In this document: one piece after another, positions 8,004 through 42,348 of the stretch
How positions within the stretch are numbered: the first letter of the stretch is position 1
How the letters are laid out: each line of letters opens with the position of its first letter
Assembly: GCA_018304425.1 (NCBI GenBank)
Contig: JAGVWE010000005.1
Span: forward strand, 137,145 to 201,144
Origin: Candidatus Iainarchaeum sp.
GTDB taxonomy: Archaea > Iainarchaeota > Iainarchaeia > Iainarchaeales > UBA10219
DNA: 64,000 nt
Direction: 5' to 3'
Program-made: the position numbers and the translations under genes
The notes under the pieces: generated by a model
Seen by the model: the letters and a program-made list of their open reading frames with translations, nothing else
Told to the model about the DNA's origin: nothing
Databases searched by the model: none

Positions 8004-8103
8004 GTGCCATACCCTGTATGGCACTTTTTCGCCAGCCTTTTGTAAAAAGGCTGTGGCATGCCTAGTATGCCACTTTTTCGCCAGCCTTTTGTAAAAAGGC
8101 TGG
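8004..8103 (-). repeat. Two tandem 49-nt copies of hairpin element family B
   Basis: Minus-strand unit: CAGCCTTTTTACAAAAGGCTG, then GCGAAAAA, then GTGCCATAC-nnn-GTATGGCAC. Copies at 8053-8103 and 8004-8053 begin 2 nt after the tRNA-Gly 3' end. Confidence 0.8.
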
Positions 8104-8105
8104 AG

Positions 8106-8176
8106 TGCAGCCGCCGGGGGTCGAACCCGGGTCGAAAGCTTGGGAAGCTCTCATCCTGCCACTAGACTACGGCTGC
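8106..8176 (-). tRNA. tRNA-Gly (anticodon CCC)
   Basis: Acceptor GCAGCCG/CGGCTGC, anticodon arm AGAGC-TTCCCAA-GCTTT, T arm CCGGG-TTCGACC-CCCGG, discriminator A. CTTTAAAA box about 35 nt upstream. Confidence 0.88.
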
Positions 8177-8232: not shown

Positions 8233-8886
8233 ATGGCGAGGCTCTCCCCCCGAGAAGCGGCGGCCGAGGCCTTCAAGCGGCTCCACAAGGCGTATCCAGA
8301 CGCCAAAGTCGAGTTACGGCATGCGAACCCCTTGGAGTTGCTGGTGGCAACCATGCTCTCCGCGCAGTGCACGGATGCCCGCGTCAACCAGGTCACGCCC
8401 GCGTTGTTCAAGAAGTATGGGTCGGCGGCCGACTACGCGAACGCGGACCTGAAAACACTGGAACGGGAAATCCATTCCACGGGGTTCTACAAGAACAAGG
8501 CCAAAAACATCGTGAACACGTGCAAGATAATCGTGGAAAGGCACGGCGGCCGGGTGCCGGAGTCGATGGCGGAATTGACGGAGTTGCCGGGCGTGGCGCG
8601 GAAGACCGCGAACATCGTGTTGGCGTCAGCCTTTGGAATCGTGGACGGCATTCCCGTGGACACGCACGTATGGCGGGTCTCGCAGCGGCTGGGGTTGACG
8701 AAGTTCGATGACCAGGACAAAATCGAGCGAGCCCTGTGCGCGTTGCTGCCGCGCGGGAAATGGTGGCCCTTTTCGACGCTGCTCATCTGGCACGGTCGCC
8801 ATACCTGCATGGCCCGCAAGCCGGCTTGCAGCCGGTGCCCGTTGAACGACTTCTGCCCGCGCGTGGACGTGAGGGTGAGCGAGTGA
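8233..8886 (+). CDS. nth: Endonuclease III (DNA glycosylase/AP lyase)
   Basis: 217 aa with an HhH-GPD layout (LPGVARKTANIVL) and a C-terminal 4Fe-4S cluster loop C-x6-C-x2-C-x5-C (CMARKPACSRCPLNDFC). Confidence 0.92.
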   Translation: MARLSPREAAAEAFKRLHKAYPDAKVELRHANPLELLVATMLSAQCTDARVNQVTPALFKKYGSAADYANADLKTLEREIHSTGFYKNKAKNIVNTCKIIVERHGGRVPESMAELTELPGVARKTANIVLASAFGIVDGIPVDTHVWRVSQRLGLTKFDDQDKIERALCALLPRGKWWPFSTLLIWHGRHTCMARKPACSRCPLNDFCPRVDVRVSE

Positions 8887-9275: not shown

Positions 9276-10937
9276 ATGCCCGGCCCCCTAGAACCGCGAA
9301 GGTCAAAGTTGTCTCGCTGGCCGCGCCTCCTTCGACCAGCGCTAGGGCCTGCGCCAGTTGAATGGCGCGGAAAAGCAGTGCCCCATACCATTGAATTCAA
9401 TCCTGCCACCCAGCAGCACACGGGAATTAAGTCGGTGACCGTGGAACCTTTACAGGCCAGACACGTTGAAGGCCAGGAGAGCATCGGCTTACATCAAGTT
9501 GACATTCACTTGACTAGTGGGCGAACCTTTAAAGCGAGAATGCTGCCCGGGCTGGCCCGTGCACCGGTTGGAATTGTTTATCTCAAGGGAATGATTCCCC
9601 CTCCCGGCCAAAAAGCCGGTGTTGACCGGACTACATTCAGGGAAATGCGGAAAAGCGAGGAGGGCCAGAAGGCCTTTGCCGCCTTTGCGGAAGCCCAAAA
9701 GCTCAAGGAACAGAATATCCTCAAAGAGCTTTCCTCCAGGGGCCTGCCGGTCATCACTTTTGAATGGACTGGCACCTATGAAAACAAGGAGTTTGGAAGT
9801 TTTACGGAAGCAACCATGAAGGCCGACATCGATCGGGCCATTCAAGCCATGCATTTACTGACCGGCGCGAAAAAAGCGGTGCTGTCAGGGTGGAGTTTGG
9901 GTGCTACTGCCGCGTTATGGTATGGCGCCAAGCATGCAAACCGGCATGAGATCGCCGGCATACTTGGGATGAGCCCCTACCACGTGCAAAGAGAAGCGGG
10001 GCTTAGTGGCAGGCCCATAGGGATTCAACCAGAAGAAACCCGGGGACACGTCATACAAAGAATCGTGTCCCCGCAGTACCGTGACATGGCGGCAGTCCAA
10101 TTTGCTGAAAATTTTGAGGCAGGAAAAATTTTCGGGTTCCTGGGAGACCCATCCATGAGGCGGCTGGCACGCCTTCGAGTACCCATTGTATTGACCCACG
10201 GGGAGAGGGACATTCTTTCCTTTCACGGCCGCACAGAGCGGATTGCTGAAGAAATACGTAGATGGAGACAGGCACGAAACCTGCCAACCGATGACATTTA
10301 TTATGAACGGGTGCCTGGCACCGGCCATGATGCAATTACTGGAAGCCATGGCCGACTCCAGGGCCTGCTGGATTCACTTTTGTCAGACTTGTTTGGATTC
10401 CACCATACATTACACAGTTTCCCCCCTAGCGCAAGAAAGTTTGTACAAGAACTGCCACCTGAAAAGCAGCTTTCGATACTAATCCATCACCTCGAACACC
10501 AGCCTACTGGAAAAAAGCGAATTCCTTTAAGGACATACCATGACGCTGACAGAAAGGCTTGGACCGAGTTTAAACCGGTCATGCCTGGCGTGCCGCCTGT
10601 GATGGTGCATGGTGTGGGGGATAAGGTAATAAGCCAGGAAACGACCAGACGATTGACTGCGTTGCTTAAAACTATGAATGTGCTTCAGAGGGGACAAGAC
10701 CAAGTGATACCCCAGCATTTGGAAATTGTGCGGGAGATGGGTATCCCGATGGATAGGATTCCAGCGAACCAGACGGCGGAGAGAACCGAATTAATTGGAA
10801 GATTGAGAGCCCAGTTCGTTAAGTTATGCTATGAGACGGCCAAACAGGTGGGCGTCACTCCACGGGAATTCCTGGTTTTGGCAAGAATATTCGTTGGGAT
10901 GCCGGTTCGCCGGCTACGTCCACCAGCCGCCCCCTAA
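9276..10937 (+). CDS. Alpha/beta-hydrolase-fold protein with an unknown C-terminal extension of about 200 aa
   Basis: Nucleophile elbow GWSLG (GxSxG). Later THGERD and GTGHD motifs fit a Ser-Asp-His triad. The gene is visibly AT-richer than its neighbours. Confidence 0.7.
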   Translation: MPGPLEPRRSKLSRWPRLLRPALGPAPVEWRGKAVPHTIEFNPATQQHTGIKSVTVEPLQARHVEGQESIGLHQVDIHLTSGRTFKARMLPGLARAPVGIVYLKGMIPPPGQKAGVDRTTFREMRKSEEGQKAFAAFAEAQKLKEQNILKELSSRGLPVITFEWTGTYENKEFGSFTEATMKADIDRAIQAMHLLTGAKKAVLSGWSLGATAALWYGAKHANRHEIAGILGMSPYHVQREAGLSGRPIGIQPEETRGHVIQRIVSPQYRDMAAVQFAENFEAGKIFGFLGDPSMRRLARLRVPIVLTHGERDILSFHGRTERIAEEIRRWRQARNLPTDDIYYERVPGTGHDAITGSHGRLQGLLDSLLSDLFGFHHTLHSFPPSARKFVQELPPEKQLSILIHHLEHQPTGKKRIPLRTYHDADRKAWTEFKPVMPGVPPVMVHGVGDKVISQETTRRLTALLKTMNVLQRGQDQVIPQHLEIVREMGIPMDRIPANQTAERTELIGRLRAQFVKLCYETAKQVGVTPREFLVLARIFVGMPVRRLRPPAAP

Positions 10938-12899: not shown

Positions 12900-12961
12900 A
12901 ACTGACGAGGCGTCAGTTGACACCGCATACGTCGTCCCATCTGCGATGGGACATAAATATA
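12900..12961 (-). repeat. Family A element, short form, 5' of tRNA-Leu
   Basis: Minus strand: TATATTTAT, GTCCCATC-GCA-GATGGGAC, GACGTATGCGGTG, AACTGACG-CCT-CGTCAGTT. The last stem abuts tRNA nt +1. Near-identical architecture at 28838-28899. Confidence 0.75.
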
Positions 12962-15143: not shown

Positions 15144-15215
15144 TCACTTACTCTGTTTTTCCGGCAAACCCCACCCCTTATTAATCGTTTTCGGATGGAA
15201 TTGGATACCAGCGCC

Positions 15216-15394
15216 GCGGAGGTGGCAGAGTGGTCTAATGCGCCAGCCTGGAAAGGCCTTGAACCCTGTAAGGGTTTACAAAAGGCCTGCGAAAAGGGGT
15301 CATACGTTGTATGGCCCTGCCTGATAAGGCCGCAGGAAGGTTCCAGCGAGCTGGTTTCCGCAAGGAAGCACGAGTTCGAATCTCGTCCTCCGCG
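15216..15394 (+). tRNA. tRNA-Ser (anticodon GGA) with a 95-nt intron at the canonical 37/38 position (about 15254-15348)
   Basis: Exons fold as a type II tRNA: acceptor GCGGAGG/CCTCCGC, anticodon stem CCAGC...GCTGG, loop CTGGAA+A, variable arm TTCC-GCAA-GGAA, T arm ACGAG-TTCGAAT-CTCGT. Intron 3' TTCC pairs with GGAA of the anticodon loop, and AAGG with intron CCTT, giving a bulge-helix-bulge. Confidence 0.85.
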
Positions 15395-15464
15395 CTGCCC
15401 TTTCCTTCTTTTCCTGGATGGGGGACGCGCTTTGCCTTTTAACCTTTTCCCATCCTAACACAGT

Positions 15465-17273
15465 ATGGCAGCGAAAGACCTAATCTTCGTTCTCGATTTC
15501 GGCGGACAATATGCCCACCTCATTGCCAACCGCGTCCGCCGCCTGGGGGTTTACTCGGAGATCAAGGACCCGCTCACGCCCCTGGCCGAGCTCCGCAAAG
15601 CCAAGGGAATCATCCTCAGTGGGGGGCCGGGAAGCGTCTACGACTCCCAGGGCACGCCCTATAACCCCGAACTGTTCAAGACCCGGAAACCCGTCCTCGG
15701 CATCTGCTACGGGCACCAGGTGATGGGCCACGAGTTGGGCGGCAAGGTGGTTCCCGGCACGGTGAAAGAGTACGGCAAGGCCGCGCTCATGGTCAAGAAG
15801 AAAGAGGGCCTCTTTGCCGGCCTCTCGGACCACGAAACCGTGTGGATGAGCCATGGTGACACGGTCGCAAGGCTGCCCCCCGGCTTCGAAATCATCGGCT
15901 CGACGCCTGACTGCCCGCACGCGGCCATCGCGGACTTCAAGCGCAGGATGTTCGGCGTGCAGTTCCACGTCGAGGTAACGCATACCCCGCAAGGCGGGCG
16001 GATGCTGAAGAACTTCCTGTTCAAGGTCTGCAAGTGCAAGAAGAGCTGGAACGTGAAGGGGTTTGCCGCGCAGAAGGTGAAGGAGCTTCGAAGGGAAGTC
16101 GGGAAGAAGAACGTGTTCCTGCTTATCAGCGGCGGCGTTGACTCGGTGGTTTCGCTGGCGCTGCTGAACAAGGCCATTGGCTCCAAGCGCATCTATGCCT
16201 TGCACGTCGACCACGGCTTCATGCGCAAGGAGGAAAGCTTGGCCGTGGAGCGGGCACTGAAGAAGCTCAAGATGTCGCCGCTGCACGTGGTGGACGCGGG
16301 CAAGGAATTCTACGAAGCCCTAAGGGGCGTGGTGGAGCCGGAGCAGAAGCGGAAGGTCATCGGAGGACTCTTCGTGAAGCTTGCCAATCAGGAGCTGCGG
16401 CGGCTGAACCTCAAGCCCGAGGACTGGCTGCTGGGCCAGGGCACGATTTACCCGGACACCATTGAAAGCGCGGGCACGAGGCACGCCTGCCGCATCAAAA
16501 CACATCACAACCGCATTGACTCGCTCAAGGAAATGATGGAAGCCGGTTTGCTGGTGGAGCCCATCAAGGAGTTGTACAAGGACGAGGTCCGGGAACTCGG
16601 CGTCCAGCTCGGCTTGCCCGGGGCAATCGTGAAACGGCATCCCTTTCCCGGGCCGGGGCTCGCCATCCGGGCCCTTTGCTCGAACGGCCAAACCGAACCC
16701 GTGCCGGAGGGCTTGGGGGAACGCGTGAACGCCTTGGCAAGCAAGTTCGGGTTGAAGGCCCAGGTGCTGCCCCTTCGAAGCGTGGGCGTGCAGGGAGACG
16801 AGCGCACCTACCGGTTGGCCGTGGCGTTGCAGGGCCAGGCAAGCTGGACCGCCTTGGAGGAATGCTCGACGCGGCTCACCAACGAGGTCAAGGAAGTCAA
16901 CCGCGTGGTGTGGCTGCTTGAACCGAAGGCCATTGAATCGGTGAGGGTCAGGCCCGGCTATTTGACGCGCAGCCGGCTGGACTCGTTGCGGGAAGCCGAT
17001 GACGTGGTCAACCAGGCAATGGCAAAAACCAGGTGGTATGACCGGATATGGCAGTTTCCCGTGGTGCTCGTGCCCCTCGCGGTCAACGCCGGAGAAGGCG
17101 AGTCCATCGTGTTGAGGCCGGTGTTCTCCACCGAGGCCATGACCGCGAAATTCGCCCCCCTGCCTCCCGCCTTGGTGGAGAAAATGGTGAAGGGCATCCG
17201 GAAACTCAAGGGAATAACGGCCGTGTTCTACGACGTGACGCACAAGCCGCCGGCCACGATTTGCTGGGAGTGA
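15465..17273 (+). CDS. guaA: GMP synthase (glutamine-hydrolysing), fused GATase + ATP-pyrophosphatase
   Basis: GATase nucleophile motif GICYGHQ. PP-loop LISGGVDS. The C-terminal dimerisation region ends ...PPATICWE, as in GuaA. Confidence 0.93.
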   Translation: MAAKDLIFVLDFGGQYAHLIANRVRRLGVYSEIKDPLTPLAELRKAKGIILSGGPGSVYDSQGTPYNPELFKTRKPVLGICYGHQVMGHELGGKVVPGTVKEYGKAALMVKKKEGLFAGLSDHETVWMSHGDTVARLPPGFEIIGSTPDCPHAAIADFKRRMFGVQFHVEVTHTPQGGRMLKNFLFKVCKCKKSWNVKGFAAQKVKELRREVGKKNVFLLISGGVDSVVSLALLNKAIGSKRIYALHVDHGFMRKEESLAVERALKKLKMSPLHVVDAGKEFYEALRGVVEPEQKRKVIGGLFVKLANQELRRLNLKPEDWLLGQGTIYPDTIESAGTRHACRIKTHHNRIDSLKEMMEAGLLVEPIKELYKDEVRELGVQLGLPGAIVKRHPFPGPGLAIRALCSNGQTEPVPEGLGERVNALASKFGLKAQVLPLRSVGVQGDERTYRLAVALQGQASWTALEECSTRLTNEVKEVNRVVWLLEPKAIESVRVRPGYLTRSRLDSLREADDVVNQAMAKTRWYDRIWQFPVVLVPLAVNAGEGESIVLRPVFSTEAMTAKFAPLPPALVEKMVKGIRKLKGITAVFYDVTHKPPATICWE

Positions 17274-17949: not shown

Positions 17950-18023
17950 TATTTATGTCCCATCGAGCCCTTCAGGCGAGATGGGACGACGTATCGTGTG
18001 CAGCCGCCACCTTCAGGCGGCTA
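17950..18023 (+). repeat. Family A element, long form, between the rpe start and the tRNA-Ala 3' end
   Basis: TATTTAT, GTCCCATC-(15-nt loop)-GATGGGAC, GACGTAT, CGTGTG, AGCCGCC-ACCTTCA-GGCGGCT. It ends 1 nt from the tRNA-Ala discriminator. Sister copy at 52389-52466. Confidence 0.75.
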
Positions 18024-18095
18024 TGGACTGGCGGGGAATCGAACCCCGAGTCTCCGCGTTGCGAACGCGGCGTCTTACCATTCGACTACCAGCCC
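18024..18095 (-). tRNA. tRNA-Ala (anticodon CGC)
   Basis: Acceptor GGGCTGG/CCAGTCC with the G3:U70 alanine identity pair, anticodon arm CCGCG-TTCGCAA-CGCGG, T arm CGGGG-TTCGATT-CCCCG, discriminator A. Confidence 0.9.
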
Positions 18096-18097
18096 AA

Positions 18098-18286
18098 GGG
18101 CTTTTTACAAAAGCCCTGCGAAAAGGTGCCATTCTCACGAATGGCACGGCCTTTTTACAAAGGGTTTGCGACCTTGTCTCCCCCTGGGAGACGAGGCCCC
18201 GAAGACAAAGTCTTCGGGGAAATGCCCTGTGCATTGCACAGGGCTGGCTCGGCCTTTCGGCCTCGCATCTGGGCAGCCGTTGCCCA
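18098..18286 (+). other. Array of eight consecutive hairpins; the first units belong to family B
   Basis: Hairpins, in order:
- GGGCTTTT-TACA-AAAGCCC, then linker TGCGAAAAG
- GTGCCATTC-TCAC-GAATGGCAC
- GGCCTTT-TTACA-AAGGGTT, which needs G-U pairs and so folds on the plus strand only
- TTGTCTCCC-CCT-GGGAGACGA
- CCCCGAAGAC-AAA-GTCTTCGGGG
- GCCCTGTGCA/TGCACAGGGC
- GGCC-TTTC-GGCC
- TGGGCA-GCCGT-TGCCCA. Confidence 0.7.
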
Positions 18287-18343
18287 GACTGCAAGATAAC
18301 TGAAACCAAAGGAATTTATTAAGGGTTAACATTAATATAAAGC

Positions 18344-21300
18344 ATGCCGGATGGAGAGGGGAAGGACGCGGTAGCCGCTGGTTCGGGGGAGAAGCCCAGG
18401 CCCTTGGGGGCAGGGGAGCGGGTGGTGAAGCTCAAGGCCGCGCCGAAGACCGACCTCTTTGAAGAGGTCTTGACCGGGAAAAGCCATGAAGAGCAGTCCC
18501 TGGACGAGCTCTCGGAGGCCGAGGAAAAGAGGGCCCAGGAAGCCGAGAAAACCGTGGCCACCAAGCCGGGCAGCGGGGCTGCGCCGGTGGCGGGGGCGGA
18601 AATGCCGGCGCCTGTTCAGGCTCGCCGCGGGAGCCCTCGGAAGGCTGCCCCTAAAATCAGGGTACGCAAGAAGGGGGTTGAAGAAGCCGGGGCCGGCGTT
18701 GCGTCGAGTGAGGGCGGGGACGACGATGACGAGGAAGACGAGCCAGGGGAACCGAAGCCGCCCCTGGACATCGAGGAAGGCGATGACTTAAGTGCCGGCG
18801 ACTGGAATGACTTGTTCAAGGAGGGAGACACCCGGGAGGAAGGCATCAAGGCGGCGCAGGCCCTGCCGGAGGCAGGGGCCGGGGAAGCGGGGTCTTCGGC
18901 GGGCGAAGAAGGACCGGTGGAGGCAAAAACCCCGCAGCCCAGCAAGGAGGAAATCCGCAGGGAGTTGATTGCCAGGACCGTTGCGGCCGGCCAAGGGGAT
19001 TTGACTCCCTTGAAGGAGGGGTTGCCGCTCAAGTTCTTGGAGGACCCGGAGAAGGGCAACGTGTTCATTGGCCGCAAGAAAAACATTTGGAAGAAGTACG
19101 GGTATGAGGGCGCGTTGCTGGTTGGAAAGGTAGTGGAAGAAGAGTTCAAGGAACGGCACGTCTACTTGGACTCGTTGAACCCGCACGTGGTGTTCGTTTG
19201 CGGGGCCCGGGGTTCGGGTAAATCGTATATCATGGGGGTCATGGCCGAGGAACTCGCGCGCAAGAACAAGAACGTGGGAACGGTGGTCATTGACCCGGTT
19301 GGCGTGTTTTGGAGCATGAAGTACCCGAATAAGGAGGAAAAGGAGCTCGCGTTGATGCCGGACTGGGGCTTGCAGCCGGAGGGCCTGGACAGCTTGCGCG
19401 TGTTCATCCCAGAGGGCATCAAGAGCCAGACGCCTAAGGAGACCTATGACGCTACCTTCACCATGCAGCCCAGCCTCTTGACTTCGGATGACTGGTGCCT
19501 GACCTACGGCATTGACCGGTTCAGCCCCACGGGCCTCTTACTGGAAAAGACGCTGAAGAAAGTCGAGTTGGGGTATGAGAACCTGGATGGCAAGAAGTTC
19601 CCAGCCCGCAGGCGGTCTTATTCCCTGGATGACCTCATTGCCTGCCTGGAAACGGATGCGGAATTGAATTCGAGGGACAAGGGGTACAAGCAGGACTCCA
19701 TTCGTGCCCTGGTTTCCCGATTTGAGGCCGCCAAGAACTGGGGGATTTTCAGTGATAGGGGCACGCCCTTGGTGGAAATCAGCAAGGAAGGCCAGTTAAC
19801 GGTCATTGACACGAGTTTCCTGGACGACAATGTCACGGCCCTGGTCATCGGGATACTGGCGAGGAGGCTGTTGGCGGCCAGGAAGCTGTCCACGCGGAAG
19901 GAGGCCGCCAAGAAGTTCCAGGAAGAGGAGGGGGTTGACGTCCTGGAAACGGATATTCCGCCTACCTGGCTGTTCATCGACGAGGCGCACACCCTTATCC
20001 CGAGTGGCAACGTCAAGACCCCGGCCACGCATGCCCTGGTCGAGTACGTGAAGCAGGGGCGTCGACCGGGTTGTTCCCTGGTGTTTGCCACGCAGCAGCC
20101 TTCGGCCATTGACACCAAGGTGTTGAGCCAATTGGATGTGATGGTCACCCACAAGCTGGTGTTCGACGACGACATCAAGGCCATTTACAAGCGCAGCCCG
20201 ACCATCGTGCCCTTTAAGTACAAGAAGCCGAGTTTCGTGAAGACCCTGCCGATTGGCACGGCGCTGGTGGGGGATCGGACGGAGGAAACGAGCCGCGCCT
20301 TCATCATGAAAATCAGGCCCCGGTTGTCCCAGCACGAGGGCCGTGAGGCGGAGACCACGGAGCGTTCCGTGGAGTTGGGGGCCAAGCAGGTGGAGCAGTT
20401 GGCGGTGAGCATGTTGTTGCGCCGCCTGGAAGAAGAGGGCGAGACCAGCATCGAGACCGTGGAGAAGAGCGTGCAGGTGCTTAACCAGAAGTACAAGAGC
20501 ACAGCCGACGCGGAGAACGTGCTCGCGATGCTGAAGCGGCATGGACTTGTAGTGGACGAGGAGTTCGTGCGGTTGAAGGAGTACGTGGAGAAGGAAGAGG
20601 GAACCGGGAAACCGGCGGCAGCCAAAGCCGGCGAGGAAAGCCCCGTGGAAGCGGAAGAAGAAAAGGAGGCCGAGGAAGAGGCCCAGGAAACGGCGGGGGA
20701 GGAAAAACAGGGGAAACCCGTCCCCGAAGCCGTGGAAGCGGGCTTCGGCGGGCAGACCGAGTTGCTGGCCTTGCCTGCCCGCGTGAACCAGCAGGCGGCG
20801 CAGCGCGTGGTGGATGGCCTGCGGCACAGGAAAGTCCTGGGCTTGCTGGGCAGCGAGGAAGTCATCGAGGACCTGCAATTGAAGTATGTCACGATTTGGC
20901 GCGTCAAATACGATGTCTACAACCAGCGCAAGGAATTCATTGCCCGGGAATGCTTCGTTAATTCCATGAGCGGGGAATTCATCCACTTCTTGAAGGACCG
21001 GTTCGTGGAAAGCAAGGGCTTGAAGGAAGTGTACGAGTTGGGCGAGGACGAAATCCAGTTCGTGCGCCTGCTGGGCCGCAAGGAGATGTCCTTACAGGAA
21101 ATCGTGAAGCACACGCTGTTGGACGAGAAAAAAGTCCGCCCCGTCCTCGACAAGCTGCACTTCAAACGGTTGCTGGGCAAGACCAAGAAGAACAACGAAC
21201 TCCATTACTGGCTGTTGAAGGAGTTTGACTTGCCGCCCCATGAAAGGCACGACCTCCTGCAGTCCATCCGGAACCTGCCGTTCGTGCGCGCGGAGGCCCT

Positions 21301-28837: not shown

Positions 28838-28899
28838 CATATTTATGTCCCGCCGCAGGCGGGACGACGTATGCGGTGCCGGCTGACGCCTCGTCAGCC
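28838..28899 (+). repeat. Family A element, short form, 5' of tRNA-Ser(CGA)
   Basis: CATATTTAT, GTCCCGCC-GCA-GGCGGGAC, GACGTATGCGGTG, CGGCTGACG-CCT-CGTCAGCC(G). The final G of the second stem is tRNA nt +1. Confidence 0.75.
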
Positions 28900-37650: not shown

Positions 37651-40600
37651 TTGGAAATGATTCGCATCGCGCGCCTCCGTTTGAAGAACTTCAAGAGCTT
37701 CCGCAAGGCCAACATCCCCTTTCACGAGGGCTTCACCTGCATTGCGGGCAGCAATGCCAGCGGCAAGTGCGTGGTGGGGGACACGAAAGTCTACCTGTCG
37801 GACGGCTCCGCCAAACGCATCGACGAGTTGGTTGAAGCGGCGCTCGCGAAGTCGCAGCAGCCAGAGAAAATGGAGGACGGGTGCTTCACCCTCGCCAACC
37901 CGGAAAACGTCGAGGTCGCATGCCTTAACACGTGCTCGCTGAAAATGGAGCCCATGCCCGTGCGCTCGTTCATCAAGCGCACGAGCCCCGCCACGCTCCT
38001 GAAACTCACGACGAAAAGCGGGCGCAGCGTCACGGCCACGGCCTACCACCCGGTCTACTCGCTGCAGGACGGAAAGCTCAAGGCATTGCAGGCCGGCGAA
38101 CTGAAGGCCGGCACGCGCATCGCGGTGCCGCGGCGCCTCGTCAAGGAAACGCCGGACGGTTTTTTCCGGGAGCTGATTGAAGCGGTCGCCGAGGAAGACA
38201 ACCTGTATGCGCCGAATTACGGAGAGTACCGCGAGATTGCGCGCAAGTGGCTGAAGGAAAACGGCCTGACGCAGAAAGCGGGGGCGGCGCGCACCGGCAT
38301 CCCTTACCTGGCCTTGAAGTCGTTGCTGGACGGCCAGGCCATGAAGCTGGCATACTTGTTCAGGTTGCTGAAGGCCGCAGGCCACGAAGCAAAAGAAATA
38401 GCCTGCCTGGTTCCGATGGCAAAGGGCAAGACCGGCGCGAAGGAAGTGGTCATTCCCTGGCATAACTCCAAGAAATTCGCGCGGCTGCTGGGGTACTTGT
38501 TCGCGGAAGGCCGGAACTCGACGAACAACCAGGTGTGGTTCACCAACGGCACGCCAGAAATCGTGGAAGACTATGCGAGCCTGTGCCGGCAGACCCTGGG
38601 CATCGAACCATTCGTGAAAAAATACAAGCCGAACGCCTGGGACGCCATCCTGTTCTCGAACCCCGCCAGCCTGTTCCTGGACAAGTTCGGGTTATGCAGG
38701 GGCAAACGCACGAAGCACAAGCGGTTGAACGAATTTTTCATCAGGCACGCGTCGCCTGAAGAGCTGGCGGAGTTCCTGAACGGCTTGTATTGCGGCGACG
38801 GTTACGTGACTGGCAACACCGTTGAGCTGACCAGCGCGAGCCGGGAGCTGGCTTTAAGCGTGCAACGCCTCCTGCTGATGCTGGACATTCCGGGGCGCCT
38901 CAAGCAGCGCACCAAGCATGCGACCAACACGGGCCGGAGCGGCATCTATTGGAGTGTGAGCGTATTCGGCCAGGAAAACCTCCGGAAATTCAACGAGAAA
39001 ATCCGGCTCGTGCACGAGGCGAAGCGACGAACGCTGGAAAGCGCGGTTGCCGAGCCGCGACGGATCCATTCCAATGTGGACCTCATTCCGGGGTTGCAAG
39101 GCGTTATCCGAGAAACCTGCCAGGTGCTGGGTTCGCACCCCATGCGCAAAACCGACCGCTATCCGAAGCTCCAAGCCTATGCGAGGAACCTGTGCGAGGT
39201 CAGCCGGCACGGCCTGCAGGAGGTCATCGAAAGGGAGTTCGCTCCCTTGGCGGTCGCGTCCCCGGAGAAGCTGGCCGGCCTCCGGCTGCTGGCGGAATCG
39301 GATGTTCTGTGGGACGAAATCGTGTCCATTGAAGCCTTGGAATCGGCGGAAGAATGGGTGTACGACCTGTGCATCGACGAGCACCACAACTTCGTGGCCG
39401 ACAATGTGTTCGTGCACAACAGCAACATCCTGGACTCCATCCTGTTCGCCTTGGGCGCCACGAGCCTCAAGATGCTGCGGGCCTCGCGGTTGACCGACCT
39501 GGTGAACCATGACGCGGACGAGGACTATGCGAAGGCCGAGCTGGTGCTGAATGAGAACGGCCAGGAAATCGAGGTCAAGCGGCTGATTGACAAGAAGGGG
39601 CGCGGCGCGGTCAAGCTGAACGGGAAGAAGAAGAGCCTGGATGAGGTCACGGCCTACCTCGAGGAGCTGGGCCTACGGGCCAGCGGCCACAACATCGTTG
39701 TCCAGGGAGACATAACCAAAATCATCGAGATGAACCCCAAGGAGCGGCGACAAATCATTGACCGGGTCGCGGGCCTCCAGGAGTTCGAGGAAAAAAAGGA
39801 GGAAGCGCTCAAGAAGCTGGAGAAGGTCGAGCAGAAGGTGCGCGAGGTCGGCATCGTCTTGAAGGAACGCGAGCTGTACCTGGGGGAACTGGAAAAAGAG
39901 CGGGCGCTGGCCCTGAAGTTCGAGCAACTCAACACCGAGTTGAAGCAGTCGAAGGCCACGATTTTGGCGCTGGAGATAAAGAAGGTCAAGGCCGAGTTGG
40001 CGAGCGCGGAAAAAAAGCGGGAGAGCCTGCAGAAGCAGATTGACCGCCTGGCCAGGGAAAAAGAGGGGTTGGCCGAGGAGGGCCGCAAGGCAGGGGAAAA
40101 ATTGGAGGAACTGACCCGGAAACTCTTGGAGGCCAGCCAGAAGACCTATTCCGGCATCGGCCGCGAAATCGAGGAAAAAAAGGCGGAAGCCCGCGTCCTC
40201 CGCGAGCGACTGGCGGGTTTGAACCAGCGCCTGCAACAGGATTCCCTGGCCCTCCAGCAACGGGTGGACCAGGCCAAGAACCTGGCCAAGACCGCGGGCG
40301 AGCGGGAGCGGGAACTGCACACCGCGCGGGACAAGCTTCAGGGACTCAGCGAGTCGCTCAAGCAATTGCAGGGCCTGATTGAAGCCAAGTCCAAGACGGT
40401 TTCCGCCAAGAGCGGGGCGTTGAAGGCCAAGGAAGGCCAGATCGAGGGGTTGAAGGCGAGGGCCTTGGAGCACAAGGAGGCCTTGATGGGCACGCACGGC
40501 GAAATCGCGTGGGCCGAGAACCTCCTGGCCTCGCGGGAGCACTCCATTGAGGCCGTGGAAAAGGAGAACGCGGCGTTGCACAAGAAGCTGGAGGAGAAGG

Positions 40601-42348
40601 GCGAGCTGTTGAAGCGGCTCCGGGAACTCGAGAAACGCAAGGACCACGAGCAGGCCTTGTTGAAGAAGGAAGCCGAGCTGGAGAAGGCCTTGGAGGACAT
40701 CAGTTACTCGAAGAACCGCATCGAGGGCCTCCACGAGGAGATGGCGGCCCTGCAGAAGGCGAAAACCTCTTGCCCGGTCTGCGAGAACGAGTTGACCGGG
40801 GAGCGGAAGGACAAGTTGCGCGCGAAAAAGGAGCGCGAGAAGGACGAGTTCGAGGCCCGCATCCAGGAAAAGCACGCCTTGCGCGTGGAAATCGCGCGCG
40901 AGAAGGACGAGTTGCGGCACACCCTCAACGAGATAATCAAGTTGCGCGCCCAGCTCGAGGACGTGGACGAGCTGAAGAAGAAGCTGGAGGACAACCGCAA
41001 GCGCGTGCTGGAGTTGACCGCGGAATTGAAGAAGGTGGACTTGCCGGGCCTCAAGGCCAGGGAAAAAGAGCAGCAGCACGAGCTCGAGCGCGTGGAACGC
41101 GAGTGCTCGCTGGCCGTGAAGGGCCTGGAGAACATGCAGGAATCCGCGGAGAACCTGGCGTTCAACCAGTTGATGGAGAAATTCAACGAAGCCAACGCCG
41201 AGCACGCGGAGCGGCAGGAGCGGTTGCTCAAGCTGGAAAGCGAGTTGAACAATGCCAGGGAGGCCAGGGAGCGGCTGGGCGGCGAGGCCAAGGCCCTGGA
41301 AGGCCAGGTAAAGGGGTTCGGCGAGCAGCGGATGGAGAACGAGCGCGCCCTCCAAGGCATTGAAGGGGAACTGGCGGAGAAGCAGCTGGAAATGGAGAAG
41401 TCCCGGCAGGAAACCGGGTTGATGGAGCAGGAAAAGCAGCGGGTGTCCGCGCGGGTGCACGCGGTGGCCGGCGAGAAAGGCGAACTAGAGGGAAGGATTT
41501 CCGGGCTGGAACGGGAACTCAACGAGTTCAATCTCGAGCAGTCGCGGAACGAGGTCCGAATCGTCGACCTGGAAGAGGAATTCAAGCCCTTCGCGTCCAT
41601 CGAATTGCTGAAGGAAGCCGAGCTGCCCGCCCTGCGGAGCCGCCTGCCGAAAATCGAGGCCGAACTCGACAAAATCGGGGCGGTCAACATGAAGGCCATC
41701 CAGAGCTATGAAGACTACAAGAAGGAAGTCGAGGACGTGCGTGGCAAGGCGGCCGTGCTCGAAGGGGAGCGGAAGGCCGTGCTGGAAATGATTGACAAGA
41801 TCGAGGTCAAGAAACTCAACGTGTTCATGGAGTGCTTCAACAAGGTCAGCTATTTCTTCGGCGAACTCTACAAGAGCGTCTTCCAGAAGGAGGGAAGGCT
41901 GGGCTTGTCCGATGCCGTGAACCCCTTGGCAGGCGGCCTCCTGATCCAGGCCAAGTACAAGGAAGACAAGATGAAGAGCCTGGACGAGATGTCGGGCGGG
42001 GAAAAGTCGTTGACGGCGTTGGCGTTCCTGTTCGCCATCCAGCAATACCAGCCCTCGCCCTTCTATATCTTTGACGAGATTGACGCGGCCCTGGACAAGG
42101 AGAACTCGGTGCGTGTGGGCCTGATGATCCAGCAGGTGGCCCGGAAAAGCCAGGTCATCAGCATCACGCACAATGATGCAGTCATCAAGCTGGCCGACCA
42201 GCTCATCGGCGTGGCCCTGAACAAGCAGAAGAGCAGCGTGGTGGGGTTGAAGCTCAAGGGCGTGCTTTCGGCCGGTGGGGTCTTGGGCGGCGGGGAGAAA
42301 CCCGACGAGGTCAGCGACGAGGAAGGCGCGGAAGAGCTCTCCGCGTAG
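37651..42348 (+). CDS. smc: SMC chromosome-segregation ATPase, interrupted by an intein
   Basis: N-extein IARLRLKNFKSFRKANIPFHEGFTCIAGSNASGK joins SNILDSILFALG to restore the Walker A motif GSNASGKS. Long coiled coils and hinge. C-terminal signature LSGGEKSLTALAFLFAI and Walker B FYIFDEIDAALD. Confidence 0.93.
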   Translation: MEMIRIARLRLKNFKSFRKANIPFHEGFTCIAGSNASGKCVVGDTKVYLSDGSAKRIDELVEAALAKSQQPEKMEDGCFTLANPENVEVACLNTCSLKMEPMPVRSFIKRTSPATLLKLTTKSGRSVTATAYHPVYSLQDGKLKALQAGELKAGTRIAVPRRLVKETPDGFFRELIEAVAEEDNLYAPNYGEYREIARKWLKENGLTQKAGAARTGIPYLALKSLLDGQAMKLAYLFRLLKAAGHEAKEIACLVPMAKGKTGAKEVVIPWHNSKKFARLLGYLFAEGRNSTNNQVWFTNGTPEIVEDYASLCRQTLGIEPFVKKYKPNAWDAILFSNPASLFLDKFGLCRGKRTKHKRLNEFFIRHASPEELAEFLNGLYCGDGYVTGNTVELTSASRELALSVQRLLLMLDIPGRLKQRTKHATNTGRSGIYWSVSVFGQENLRKFNEKIRLVHEAKRRTLESAVAEPRRIHSNVDLIPGLQGVIRETCQVLGSHPMRKTDRYPKLQAYARNLCEVSRHGLQEVIEREFAPLAVASPEKLAGLRLLAESDVLWDEIVSIEALESAEEWVYDLCIDEHHNFVADNVFVHNSNILDSILFALGATSLKMLRASRLTDLVNHDADEDYAKAELVLNENGQEIEVKRLIDKKGRGAVKLNGKKKSLDEVTAYLEELGLRASGHNIVVQGDITKIIEMNPKERRQIIDRVAGLQEFEEKKEEALKKLEKVEQKVREVGIVLKERELYLGELEKERALALKFEQLNTELKQSKATILALEIKKVKAELASAEKKRESLQKQIDRLAREKEGLAEEGRKAGEKLEELTRKLLEASQKTYSGIGREIEEKKAEARVLRERLAGLNQRLQQDSLALQQRVDQAKNLAKTAGERERELHTARDKLQGLSESLKQLQGLIEAKSKTVSAKSGALKAKEGQIEGLKARALEHKEALMGTHGEIAWAENLLASREHSIEAVEKENAALHKKLEEKGELLKRLRELEKRKDHEQALLKKEAELEKALEDISYSKNRIEGLHEEMAALQKAKTSCPVCENELTGERKDKLRAKKEREKDEFEARIQEKHALRVEIAREKDELRHTLNEIIKLRAQLEDVDELKKKLEDNRKRVLELTAELKKVDLPGLKAREKEQQHELERVERECSLAVKGLENMQESAENLAFNQLMEKFNEANAEHAERQERLLKLESELNNAREARERLGGEAKALEGQVKGFGEQRMENERALQGIEGELAEKQLEMEKSRQETGLMEQEKQRVSARVHAVAGEKGELEGRISGLERELNEFNLEQSRNEVRIVDLEEEFKPFASIELLKEAELPALRSRLPKIEAELDKIGAVNMKAIQSYEDYKKEVEDVRGKAAVLEGERKAVLEMIDKIEVKKLNVFMECFNKVSYFFGELYKSVFQKEGRLGLSDAVNPLAGGLLIQAKYKEDKMKSLDEMSGGEKSLTALAFLFAIQQYQPSPFYIFDEIDAALDKENSVRVGLMIQQVARKSQVISITHNDAVIKLADQLIGVALNKQKSSVVGLKLKGVLSAGGVLGGGEKPDEVSDEEGAEELSA
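37768..39420 (+). mobile_element. Intein (551 aa) with a LAGLIDADG homing-endonuclease domain, inserted in the SMC P-loop
   Basis: Starts with Cys (CVVGDTKVYLSDG, block A). Block B is TATAYHPV. LAGLIDADG motifs are LLGYLFAEGRN and FLNGLYCGDGYV. Ends ...NVFVHN, followed by +1 Ser. 1653 nt, in frame. Confidence 0.9.

Follow-up and report, generated by a model that had tools for sequence, protein, structure and literature searches.

A palindromic two-hairpin repeat shared by tRNA flanks and the 95-nt tRNA-Ser(GGA) intron of a DPANN archaeon

Introduction

The DNA considered here is a stretch of 64,000 nucleotides (hereafter the window) of contig JAGVWE010000005.1 from Candidatus Iainarchaeum sp., in which a tRNA-Ser(GGA) gene is interrupted by an intron of 95 nt. 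Archaeal tRNA introns range from 11 to 129 nt, with medians of 12–25 nt (PMC4090602). By this measure the intron is long for archaea, as the initial annotation of the locus had pointed out, yet it lies inside the known range. The question raised by this locus is what fills such an intron, and why its interior resembles the leaders and trailers of other tRNAs in the same DNA. For the gain and growth of archaeal tRNA introns, transposition and mobile-element models have been inferred mostly from the similarity of one intron to another. For example, transposed tRNA introns have been described in Thermoproteales (Fujishima et al., 2010, as far as this work is presented in PMC4090602), and mobile-element models of tRNA gene disruption have been put forward for Caldiarchaeum subterraneum (PMC3293823).

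The answer that is, on balance, probable is that the serine intron owes its length to a repeat, here called the family B unit, one copy of which fills about two thirds of it. The unit would be a lineage-specific palindromic element of two hairpins (H1 and H2) that is propagated as DNA into those segments of tRNA transcription units that are discarded, and it probably works as a two-way terminator behind a tRNA; the copy in the serine intron, with its run of five T (T5) disabled, would be a harmless passenger removed by ordinary splicing. The host DNA is GC-rich (~59%), and the best named relatives of the GMP synthase and HerA-like proteins of the window, with 55–61% identity, come from metagenome-assembled genomes (MAGs) labelled Candidatus Diapherotrites (DPANN). 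Contigs nearly identical to the window are present in groundwater metagenomes, with SRR1658344/PRJNA268031 and the ANAN16 samples as their sources. Metagenome loci and further contigs are cited below by their L numbers.

The intron of tRNA-Ser(GGA)

The Rfam tRNA model (RF00005) matches the gene with 44.9 bits over the whole model (positions 1–71), with a 97-nt insertion in the anticodon loop. Counted by hand, the anticodon GGA occupies 15250–52, A37 is 15253 and A38 is 15349, and the joined exons form a complete cloverleaf with a class II variable arm and the 7-nt anticodon loop CUGGAAA; the long variable arm is consistent with serine identity. The intron boundary is ambiguous by 1 nt from the sequence because excision of 15255–15349 would yield an identical mature tRNA, and it is the geometry of the bulge-helix-bulge (BHB) that places the intron at the canonical 37/38 site. 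The initial annotation had described a 95-nt intron at this site with a BHB and the same 1-nt ambiguity, and the Rfam alignment, the hand count and the folds all agree with it.

In the canonical BHB, the first two bases of the anticodon pair within a central helix of 4 bp (PMC4090602). A canonical hBHBh′ motif was found in the serine pre-tRNA: C32-U33-G34-G35 pairs perfectly with CCAG, the 5′ bulge is A36 A37/A15254 and the 3′ bulge is C15347 G15348/A38 (the slash marks the predicted cut), and the inner helix h′ joins GGCCUU to AAGGUU through 6 bp (Table 1). When the pre-tRNA was folded with ViennaRNA with the cloverleaf and the central helix enforced, the CUGG:CCAG conformer was the optimum (−79.7 kcal/mol), ahead of a conformer with the full H1 stem (−78.4 kcal/mol) and of a GGAA:UUCC register (−76.2 kcal/mol). 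This last pairing is the one that had been proposed for the BHB at the outset, and it does not stand: it is not the canonical register, and it would give an 11-nt anticodon loop, in conflict with the intron boundaries proposed along with it. In the BHB conformer nearly the whole intron is paired, and the strand CCUGCG of its interior stem consists of the 3′ arm of H1 plus the start of the linker between the two hairpins. The intron alone folds at −43.3 kcal/mol. For the pre-tRNA as a whole, the z-score is −4.8.

In every respect that could be tested, this is a canonical archaeal BHB tRNA intron. It shares with such introns the 37/38 site, an hBHBh′ with a 4-bp helix over bases 34–35 and exons that join to a full cloverleaf; it differs from them in measuring 95 nt instead of the usual 12–25 nt, and in an interior repeat common to tRNA flanks (PMC4090602). 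As predicted from the BHB, the archaeal splicing endonuclease should remove it. The TATA-like box upstream of the gene is its putative promoter, as judged from similar boxes elsewhere in the window. Among the latter, those of guaA and herA lie ~27 nt before the ATG (window 15440–15467 and 18310–18346), a distance that suggests leaderless mRNAs. ARAGORN missed all three of the intron-containing tRNAs over which it was run (in the window, in L130/L131 and in L140), and the Rfam tRNA model recovered the three of them (window 15216–15394, L130:10049–10171 and L140:7787–7942).

The family B unit

The family B unit has the layout H1, linker GCGAAAA(A)G, H2, and measures 45–50 nt. H1 is a stem of N5–7 with the core CTTTTTACAAAAG, and H2 is made of GTGCCATAC, a loop and GTATGGCAC. 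The copy in the serine intron carries an additional inner hairpin, inserted into H1, which interrupts its T5 run. The initial annotation had already placed such a module in the intron, with a linker identical to that at 18117–18125 and one base shorter than those of the two copies at 8004–8103. The sequences agree with this, since the intron linker TGCGAAAAG is the same as at 18117–18125 and has one A fewer than the two other copies; the inner hairpin is also present as described, and the only correction is a minor one, its transcription having been two bases short.

The relation between the intron and the flanks was measured with a covariance model (R2) built from five flank copies alone, with the intron copy excluded, in an unfiltered scan of the 64-kb window. 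R2 scores the intron copy with 45.4 bits (E about 6e-11), and its best match outside the three tRNA loci that carry the unit reaches 12.3 bits; in unrelated bacterial loci (743 kb), once pre-selected pattern sites are set apart, the background stays at or below about 14 bits. The interior of the serine intron is thus a repeat of tRNA flanks, in line with the initial annotation. A further model, R1, scores the intron copy with 66.3 bits. In the alignment, the intron and flank copies show no difference in the 8-nt linker or in the 10-nt core of H1, and primary sequence is conserved chiefly in the A/T tracts. Both stems covary: stem cells are paired in 98.4% of cases across seven copies, both partners have changed in 7 of the 18 pairs, the observed pairing and covariation were not attained in any of 500 shuffles, and sliding the partners lowers the pairing to 27–51%.

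The unit matches no Rfam family (a scan of the tRNA-Ser locus at E ≤ 1 returned the tRNA only), and no match to it was found in phages, plasmids or viral contigs. A box C/D sRNA was considered as cargo of the intron and rejected, because the intron has no C box RUGAUGA and no UGAUGA, contains a single CUGA (15321–24) and gives no Rfam snoRNA match.

Copies at tRNA genes of the same genome

Four full family B copies were found with R1 in the window, all of them abutting tRNAs, at three of its six tRNA loci. No full copy lies away from tRNAs in the window or in ~16 kb of extension (~80 kb in total), and the ~8 kb added on each side contain no more tRNAs and no more family B units. At tRNA-Gly(CCC) the unit is duplicated in tandem in the 3′ trailer; each H1 has its T5 on the tRNA-sense strand, and TTTTTCGC comes after each H2 when the opposite strand is read. 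At tRNA-Ala(CGC) the unit is opposite in strand to the tRNA, so that the leader reads H2-CUUUUCGC-H1-tRNA, and it opens an array of eight consecutive hairpins (18097–18300) with a fold z-score of −9.3. Beyond this array stands a conserved bidirectional TATA box, TTAATAAAT (18310–18318), which appears to serve herA (apparently leaderless) and tRNA-Ala in opposite directions.

The placement of the copies follows a common pattern. In every tRNA-linked case H1 faces the tRNA or the exon and H2 is distal, and every tRNA-linked copy begins 0–5 nt from a cut of RNase P, RNase Z or the splicing endonuclease. Both orientations relative to tRNA transcription occur, and the leader copies are antisense to the intron copy.

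The contig beyond the window also encodes an archaeal RNase P RNA (L136:1347–1561), of only 215 nt against a model of 288 positions (107 bits), and a stand-alone 5S rRNA gene (L138:20064–20181); no family B units lie near these two genes of the extended contig. A second tRNA-linked cassette, family A, consists of TATTTAT, a hairpin GTCCCATC..GATGGGAC, GACGTATGCGGTG and a variable hairpin. The cassette immediately precedes tRNA-Leu(GAG) and tRNA-Ser(CGA) on their 5′ side, and at tRNA-Ala it is turned to the 3′ end of the tRNA, a location where it is kept in L125 with compensatory changes. On the opposite strand, the ATAAATA of family A found ~22–27 nt before the start of rpe may be the TATA box of this gene too. 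Elsewhere in the window, an SMC/Rad50-like open reading frame (ORF) of 1565 aa (37651–42348, + strand) contains an intein with a LAGLIDADG homing-endonuclease domain.

Table 1. Coordinates of the serine tRNA gene, its intron and the tRNA-linked repeats (positions of the window unless an L number is given).
Feature	Position	Strand	Description	Basis
tRNA-Ser(GGA) gene	15216..15394	+	5′ exon 15216–15253, intron 15254–15348, 3′ exon 15349–15394	Rfam RF00005
Intron	15254..15348	+	95 nt, canonical 37/38 site	Rfam alignment and hand count
BHB, 5′ side	15248..15260	+	CUGG 15248–51, 3-nt bulge 15252–54 (predicted cut after 15253), h′ GGCCUU 15255–60	Constrained folds
BHB, 3′ side	15337..15349	+	h′ AAGGUU 15337–42, CCAG 15343–46, 3-nt bulge 15347–49 (predicted cut after 15348)	Constrained folds
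Stem of the BHB conformer	15286..15336	+	CCUGCG (15286–91) with CGCAGG (15331–36), encloses H2 and a small hairpin H3 (15319–30)	Constrained folds
Family B unit of the serine intron	15254..15317	+	H1 outer stem 15254–60:15282–88, inner hairpin 15261–77, linker GCGAAAAG 15289–96, H2 15297–305:15309–17	
TATA-like box TTATTAAT	15178..15185	+	~34 nt upstream of the 5′ end of tRNA-Ser	Putative promoter, from its likeness to further TATA-like boxes of the window
Two tandem family B units	8004..8103	-	Units 8054–8103 and 8004–8053, starting 4 nt past the 3′ end of tRNA-Gly(CCC) (8105–8176)	R1, 59.8 and 75.4 bits; tandem repeat D20
Family B unit at the 5′ end of tRNA-Ala(CGC)	18097..18147	+	tRNA-Ala at 18023–18096, - strand	R1, 72.2 bits
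Remainder of the eight-hairpin array	18148..18300	+	Between the TATA box 18310–18318 and tRNA-Ala, beginning with a second H1 (18148–18170)	Partial R1 matches, 22.2 and 17.1 bits
Family A cassette copies	12900–12960; 28841–28899; 17950–18022; L125:2630–2706	-; +; +; 		

Copies in relatives and an empty site

A tighter family B pattern gave eight loci in metagenomes, four real (L128 to L131) and four due to chance (L127 and L132 to L134), and no matches in viral contigs. A looser scan with TTTACAAAAGNNNNGCGAAAA was discarded: among the matches listed there were chance matches in AT-rich bacteria, none with H2. In a MAG of Eubacteriales, three near-identical hairpins with TTTACAAAAG....GCGAAAA (L002:5872–5912, L002:6139–6179 and L074:4953–4993) look like an unrelated bacterial repeat. 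Regarding the real loci, L129 is a strain variant of the serine intron, L128 has a family B unit abutting the 5′ end of a tRNA-Ser(GCU), and in L130 and L131 a unit plus array abuts the 5′ end of an intron-containing tRNA-Pro(UGG). In the relative L140 (56% HerA identity), two diverged units (28.2 and 18.2 bits) lie directly in the 3′ trailer of tRNA-Ala(CGC). This syntenic tRNA-Ala (L140:7787–7942, - strand) has an 83-nt intron with a relaxed BHB, and that of the window is intron-less. In related contigs without tRNAs (L141, L143 and L144, ~47 kb in total) no match exceeded 15 bits.

An orthologous site without the array is that of L125 (78% GuaA identity), in which the tRNA-Ala leader lacks the ~195-nt hairpin array and retains the tRNA-Ala, its 3′-side hairpin cassette and the bidirectional TATA box common to herA. 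In L130, ~150 nt of the tRNA-Ala array are found, with many matching positions, before tRNA-Pro(UGG) (9880–10048), with one hairpin unit relocated. Another example is a copy outside tRNA loci: in L142 (6234–6278, - strand) a 45-nt unit, AAACCTTTTAGAAAAAGGTTT GCGAAAAAAG GTGGCTTTCGCCAC, lies in frame in glmM (30.1 bits with R1) and adds 15 loop residues that are absent from three orthologues. A possible GCCAC repeat at this insertion overlaps the H2 arm. As for the serine tRNA itself, no ortholog of the gene was recovered from relatives: no tRNA was found in the 87–145 nt available upstream of guaA in relatives with 78–80% GuaA identity; Yip1, a neighbor gene, has almost no homologues, and the HerA relatives are at most 59% identical.

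The tRNA-Pro of L130 offers the one likeness between introns. This locus has two tRNA-Pro(UGG) genes with identical exons, 1.6 kb apart, one intron-less (8375–8447) and the other with a 50-nt intron (10049–10171). The intron contains a run of six T (T6), and its central BHB helix would have a U·C mismatch; the gene may represent a recent intron gain or a decaying copy. The ends of this intron (AAAGCCUU ... AAGGGCUUCCAGCG) are like those of the serine intron (AAGGCCUU ... AAGGUUCCAGCG), and the likeness is confined to them (AAGSCUU ... AAGG..UUCCAGCG), with R1 scoring only 9.8 bits on the proline intron. The CCAG of the proline intron fits the loop of tRNA-Ser (CUGG) better than its own (UUUG), which favors a shared origin over convergence.

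The initial annotation had suggested that introns and flanks of tRNAs exchange or transpose. This suggestion is supported by the empty site in L125, the array at another tRNA in L130, the trailers of L140, the copy in glmM of L142 and the intron ends shared with L130. As is characteristic of repetitive extragenic palindromic (REP) sequences, miniature inverted-repeat transposable elements (MITEs) and Rickettsia palindromic elements (RPEs), the hairpins of the family B unit are kept in multiple copies, the unit is present or absent at orthologous sites and it is found in more than one genomic context.

T runs and strain variation

H1 is nearly palindromic and asymmetric, with T5-AC-A4 on one strand and T4-GT-A5 on the other. 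In the three leaders the longest T run is 4 on the tRNA-sense strand, against 5 on the opposite strand, and in both trailers a T run of at least 5 is found on the tRNA-sense strand directly after the tRNA. The linker differs as well and reads GCGAAAAG in leader copies (T4 on the transcribed strand) and GCGAAAAAG in the trailer copies of tRNA-Gly. The intron copy is oriented like those with T5, but here a 14-nt hairpin divides the run, and the longest T run on the sense strand of the intron is 3. Archaeal RNA polymerase terminates at oligo-T, and the orientation rule of the units can be explained by selection against T5 on the sense strand. A scan for terminator-like shapes flagged H2 followed by TTTTTCGC and gave 5 sites, with 0.7 expected. 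From its sequence, the unit behind a tRNA is probably a two-way terminator.

Two other ideas were tried and set aside. H1 does not, as a general rule, behave as a TATA box at a fixed distance from the tRNAs, since a distal H1 is 61 nt away in the window, 81 nt away in L130 and missing in L128. The asymmetry of G·U and A·C did not decide which strand folds, given too few cases and a mixed result for H1; for H2, the intron and the L128 leader have the wobble on the tRNA-sense strand, and the two trailer cases have it on the opposite one.

Between the window and L118 there are 5 differences in 21.8 kb, two of them in the stems of the serine intron. One affects H1 (15287 C/T, 3′ arm) and the other H2 (15300 T/C, 5′ arm), and on the sense strand both exchange a Watson-Crick pair and a G·U pair. 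No flank copy differs between the strains and the intron copy alone varies, so that it changes faster than its surroundings and keeps its pairing, a pattern compatible with a tolerated passenger that must not disturb the folding of the pre-tRNA.

How the repeat may have reached the intron

Taken together, these observations point, with a probability that is real although far from overwhelming, to a repeat that spreads as DNA and is tolerated in the serine intron. Its DNA would be copied by insertion or recombination between tRNA loci, would land in 5′ leaders, 3′ trailers, the serine intron and occasionally elsewhere, and would persist wherever it is harmless. Because the hairpins of the unit fold on themselves, the cloverleaf and the BHB would be left intact. 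Copies upstream of the 3′ end of a tRNA would be oriented or modified in such a way that the sense strand is free of T5, which in the intron might have been achieved by the extra hairpin that splits the T5 of H1. Directly after a tRNA the T5 would be kept and, with H2 and a T run on the other strand, might complete a two-way terminator. The archaeal splicing endonuclease would excise the serine intron with the unit as a passenger.

Several points weigh against this explanation. No consistent target-site duplication was found at five tRNA junctions, no terminal inverted repeats were found, and no transposase or integrase appears among the window genes checked. The insertion in glmM is a single case in a distantly related genome. 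The T-run rule comes from few cases and has an exception in the T6 of the L130 tRNA-Pro intron, a gene that also has an imperfect BHB and an intron-less twin; in addition, three of the six window tRNAs are without T5 within 150 nt downstream, so that T5 is perhaps not the main terminator here. The pairing kept in both strain differences is also weakly compatible with a selected RNA structure. Finally, a start 0–5 nt from a processing site every time is unexpected for harmless passengers and hints at targeting or function. Neither a mobile repeat, nor a dedicated cis-element, nor a released functional RNA explains why the units start every time within a few nucleotides of RNase P, RNase Z or splice sites.

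In the first alternative, the unit is a dedicated cis-element of tRNA genes (a terminator or insulator, a promoter-leader cassette or a processing platform) related by common descent and gene conversion, with no mobility, and the intron copy would stem from a recombination event that involved the serine gene and a tRNA trailer. The exact abutment to tRNA ends with H1 always on the tRNA side, the resemblance of H2 plus T run on the opposite strand to an intrinsic terminator, the T5 immediately after tRNA-Gly, the parallel layout of family A (TATA, hairpin, linker, hairpin, tRNA) and the units retained at the tRNA-Ala trailer in a relative with 56% HerA identity all speak for such a role. It is difficult to reconcile with it that the orthologous tRNA-Ala leader of L125 has no unit, that only half of the window tRNAs have one, that the spacing between distal H1 and tRNA varies, unlike that of a fixed promoter, that one copy lies within a protein-coding gene and that the copy in the intron cannot be a terminator on the sense strand. 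A dedicated cis-element is unlikely on this evidence.

The second alternative takes the unit as a functional RNA, and a version of it, an RNA liberated by the splicing endonuclease, had been considered by the initial annotation. The 95-nt intron, probably circular after its release, would carry hairpins that act in trans or bind a protein, and RNase P and RNase Z would free the copies of leaders and trailers. Stable circular RNAs are known to arise from tRNA introns of archaea and animals. In addition, the fold of the intron and pre-tRNA is strong, both stems covary, both strain differences retain G·U pairing on the sense strand and the tRNA-linked copies all start at processing sites. However, the leader copies are transcribed in the opposite sense, and so linker and loops differ in the RNA (CUUUUCGC instead of GCGAAAAG); primary sequence is conserved mainly in the A/T tracts, neither C/D nor H/ACA boxes are present and no Rfam family matches, the unit is dispensable in L125, and the intron copy, with its H1 interrupted, changes faster than those of the flanks. 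Stable circular RNAs from tRNA introns are also the subject of PMC4536317. The occurrence of the unit in both orientations, its absence at an orthologous site, the lack of an Rfam family or C box and the strain-variable intron copy make a functional RNA doubtful, and the suggestion of the initial annotation was not sustained in this respect.

A third possibility addresses the starts of the units themselves. The unit might be targeted to tRNA processing sites, either by spreading through RNA intermediates, which the tRNA-processing machinery would cut and ligate before they are copied to DNA, or as a released, possibly circular, hairpin RNA acting on that machinery. This is rather improbable; if true, it would provide a direct, observable mechanism for the creation or enlargement of archaeal tRNA introns.

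The intron could also be read as the fossil of a split tRNA gene. In this case a 5′ half, with its trailer and terminator unit, would have been joined to a leader with a 3′ half, and the T5 would have lost its activity afterwards. The DPANN archaeon Nanoarchaeum equitans has split tRNAs whose trailer and leader are complementary (PMC4090602), the succession of 5′ exon, H1, linker and H2 has the same layout as tRNA-Gly and its trailer, and the T5 is interrupted only in the serine intron copy. No split halves were seen, however, and both serine exons are contiguous in one gene; moreover, the 3′ part of the intron has no promoter-like element at a usable distance, and the unit is also found at the ends of full-length tRNAs and inside an ORF, which makes a split intermediate unnecessary, so that such an origin is very unlikely. 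Chance or convergence between unrelated GC-stem hairpins is suggested by how common short hairpins are in the spacers of this genome, and it is refuted at the level of the 64-kb window, and negligible in general, given the high score from a model blind to the intron copy and the identity of linker and H1 core.

Comparison with known systems

The mobile repeat proposed here behaves most like the palindromic repeats of bacteria: REP sequences and their bacterial interspersed mosaic elements (BIMEs), Correia elements and RPEs. Like them, it is a short, non-coding, multi-copy hairpin element with tandem or mosaic arrays, presence or absence at orthologous sites and terminator-like properties. It is unlike them in being archaeal, in measuring only 45–50 nt, in its near-exclusive association with tRNAs in the sequence seen and in its starts at processing sites. 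No cognate transposase is known for the family B unit. Insertion into genes has a precedent in the RPEs of R. bellii, 53 of 526 of which lie in protein genes and one in tmRNA, with in-frame insertion (PMC1458961).

Other systems share part of these features. As in the transposed introns of Thermoproteales, to the extent that these are covered in PMC4090602, related intron sequence is found in different tRNAs (the ends of the serine and L130 proline introns), suggesting spread at the DNA level; unlike there, the sharing is mainly between an intron and leaders or trailers, in a DPANN lineage, and the single likeness between introns concerns their ends only. Split tRNAs and mobile-element models (PMC4090602; PMC3293823) have in common with this case an intron tied to tRNA flank sequence and mobile DNA in disrupted tRNA genes, but the gene described here is continuous, and no recombinase-bearing element and no tRNA fragments were found. 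Finally, the tRNA-Trp intron that bears a box C/D sRNA is another long archaeal intron with structured cargo; the serine intron has no C box or snoRNA match, and its cargo is a repeat that also occurs outside introns and in both orientations.

Significance

In the literature consulted, no description of such tRNA-linked repeats in DPANN archaea was found, and the family B unit, as a family of repeats of this kind, stands outside the Rfam families. One small repeat is found in an intron, in leaders, in trailers and in one protein gene, and an orthologous site is empty of it. This is of biological significance because it provides a concrete case in which repeat DNA enlarges a canonical intron with its splice motif untouched, and because it points to a testable constraint on such growth, namely that the sense strand be free of oligo-T.

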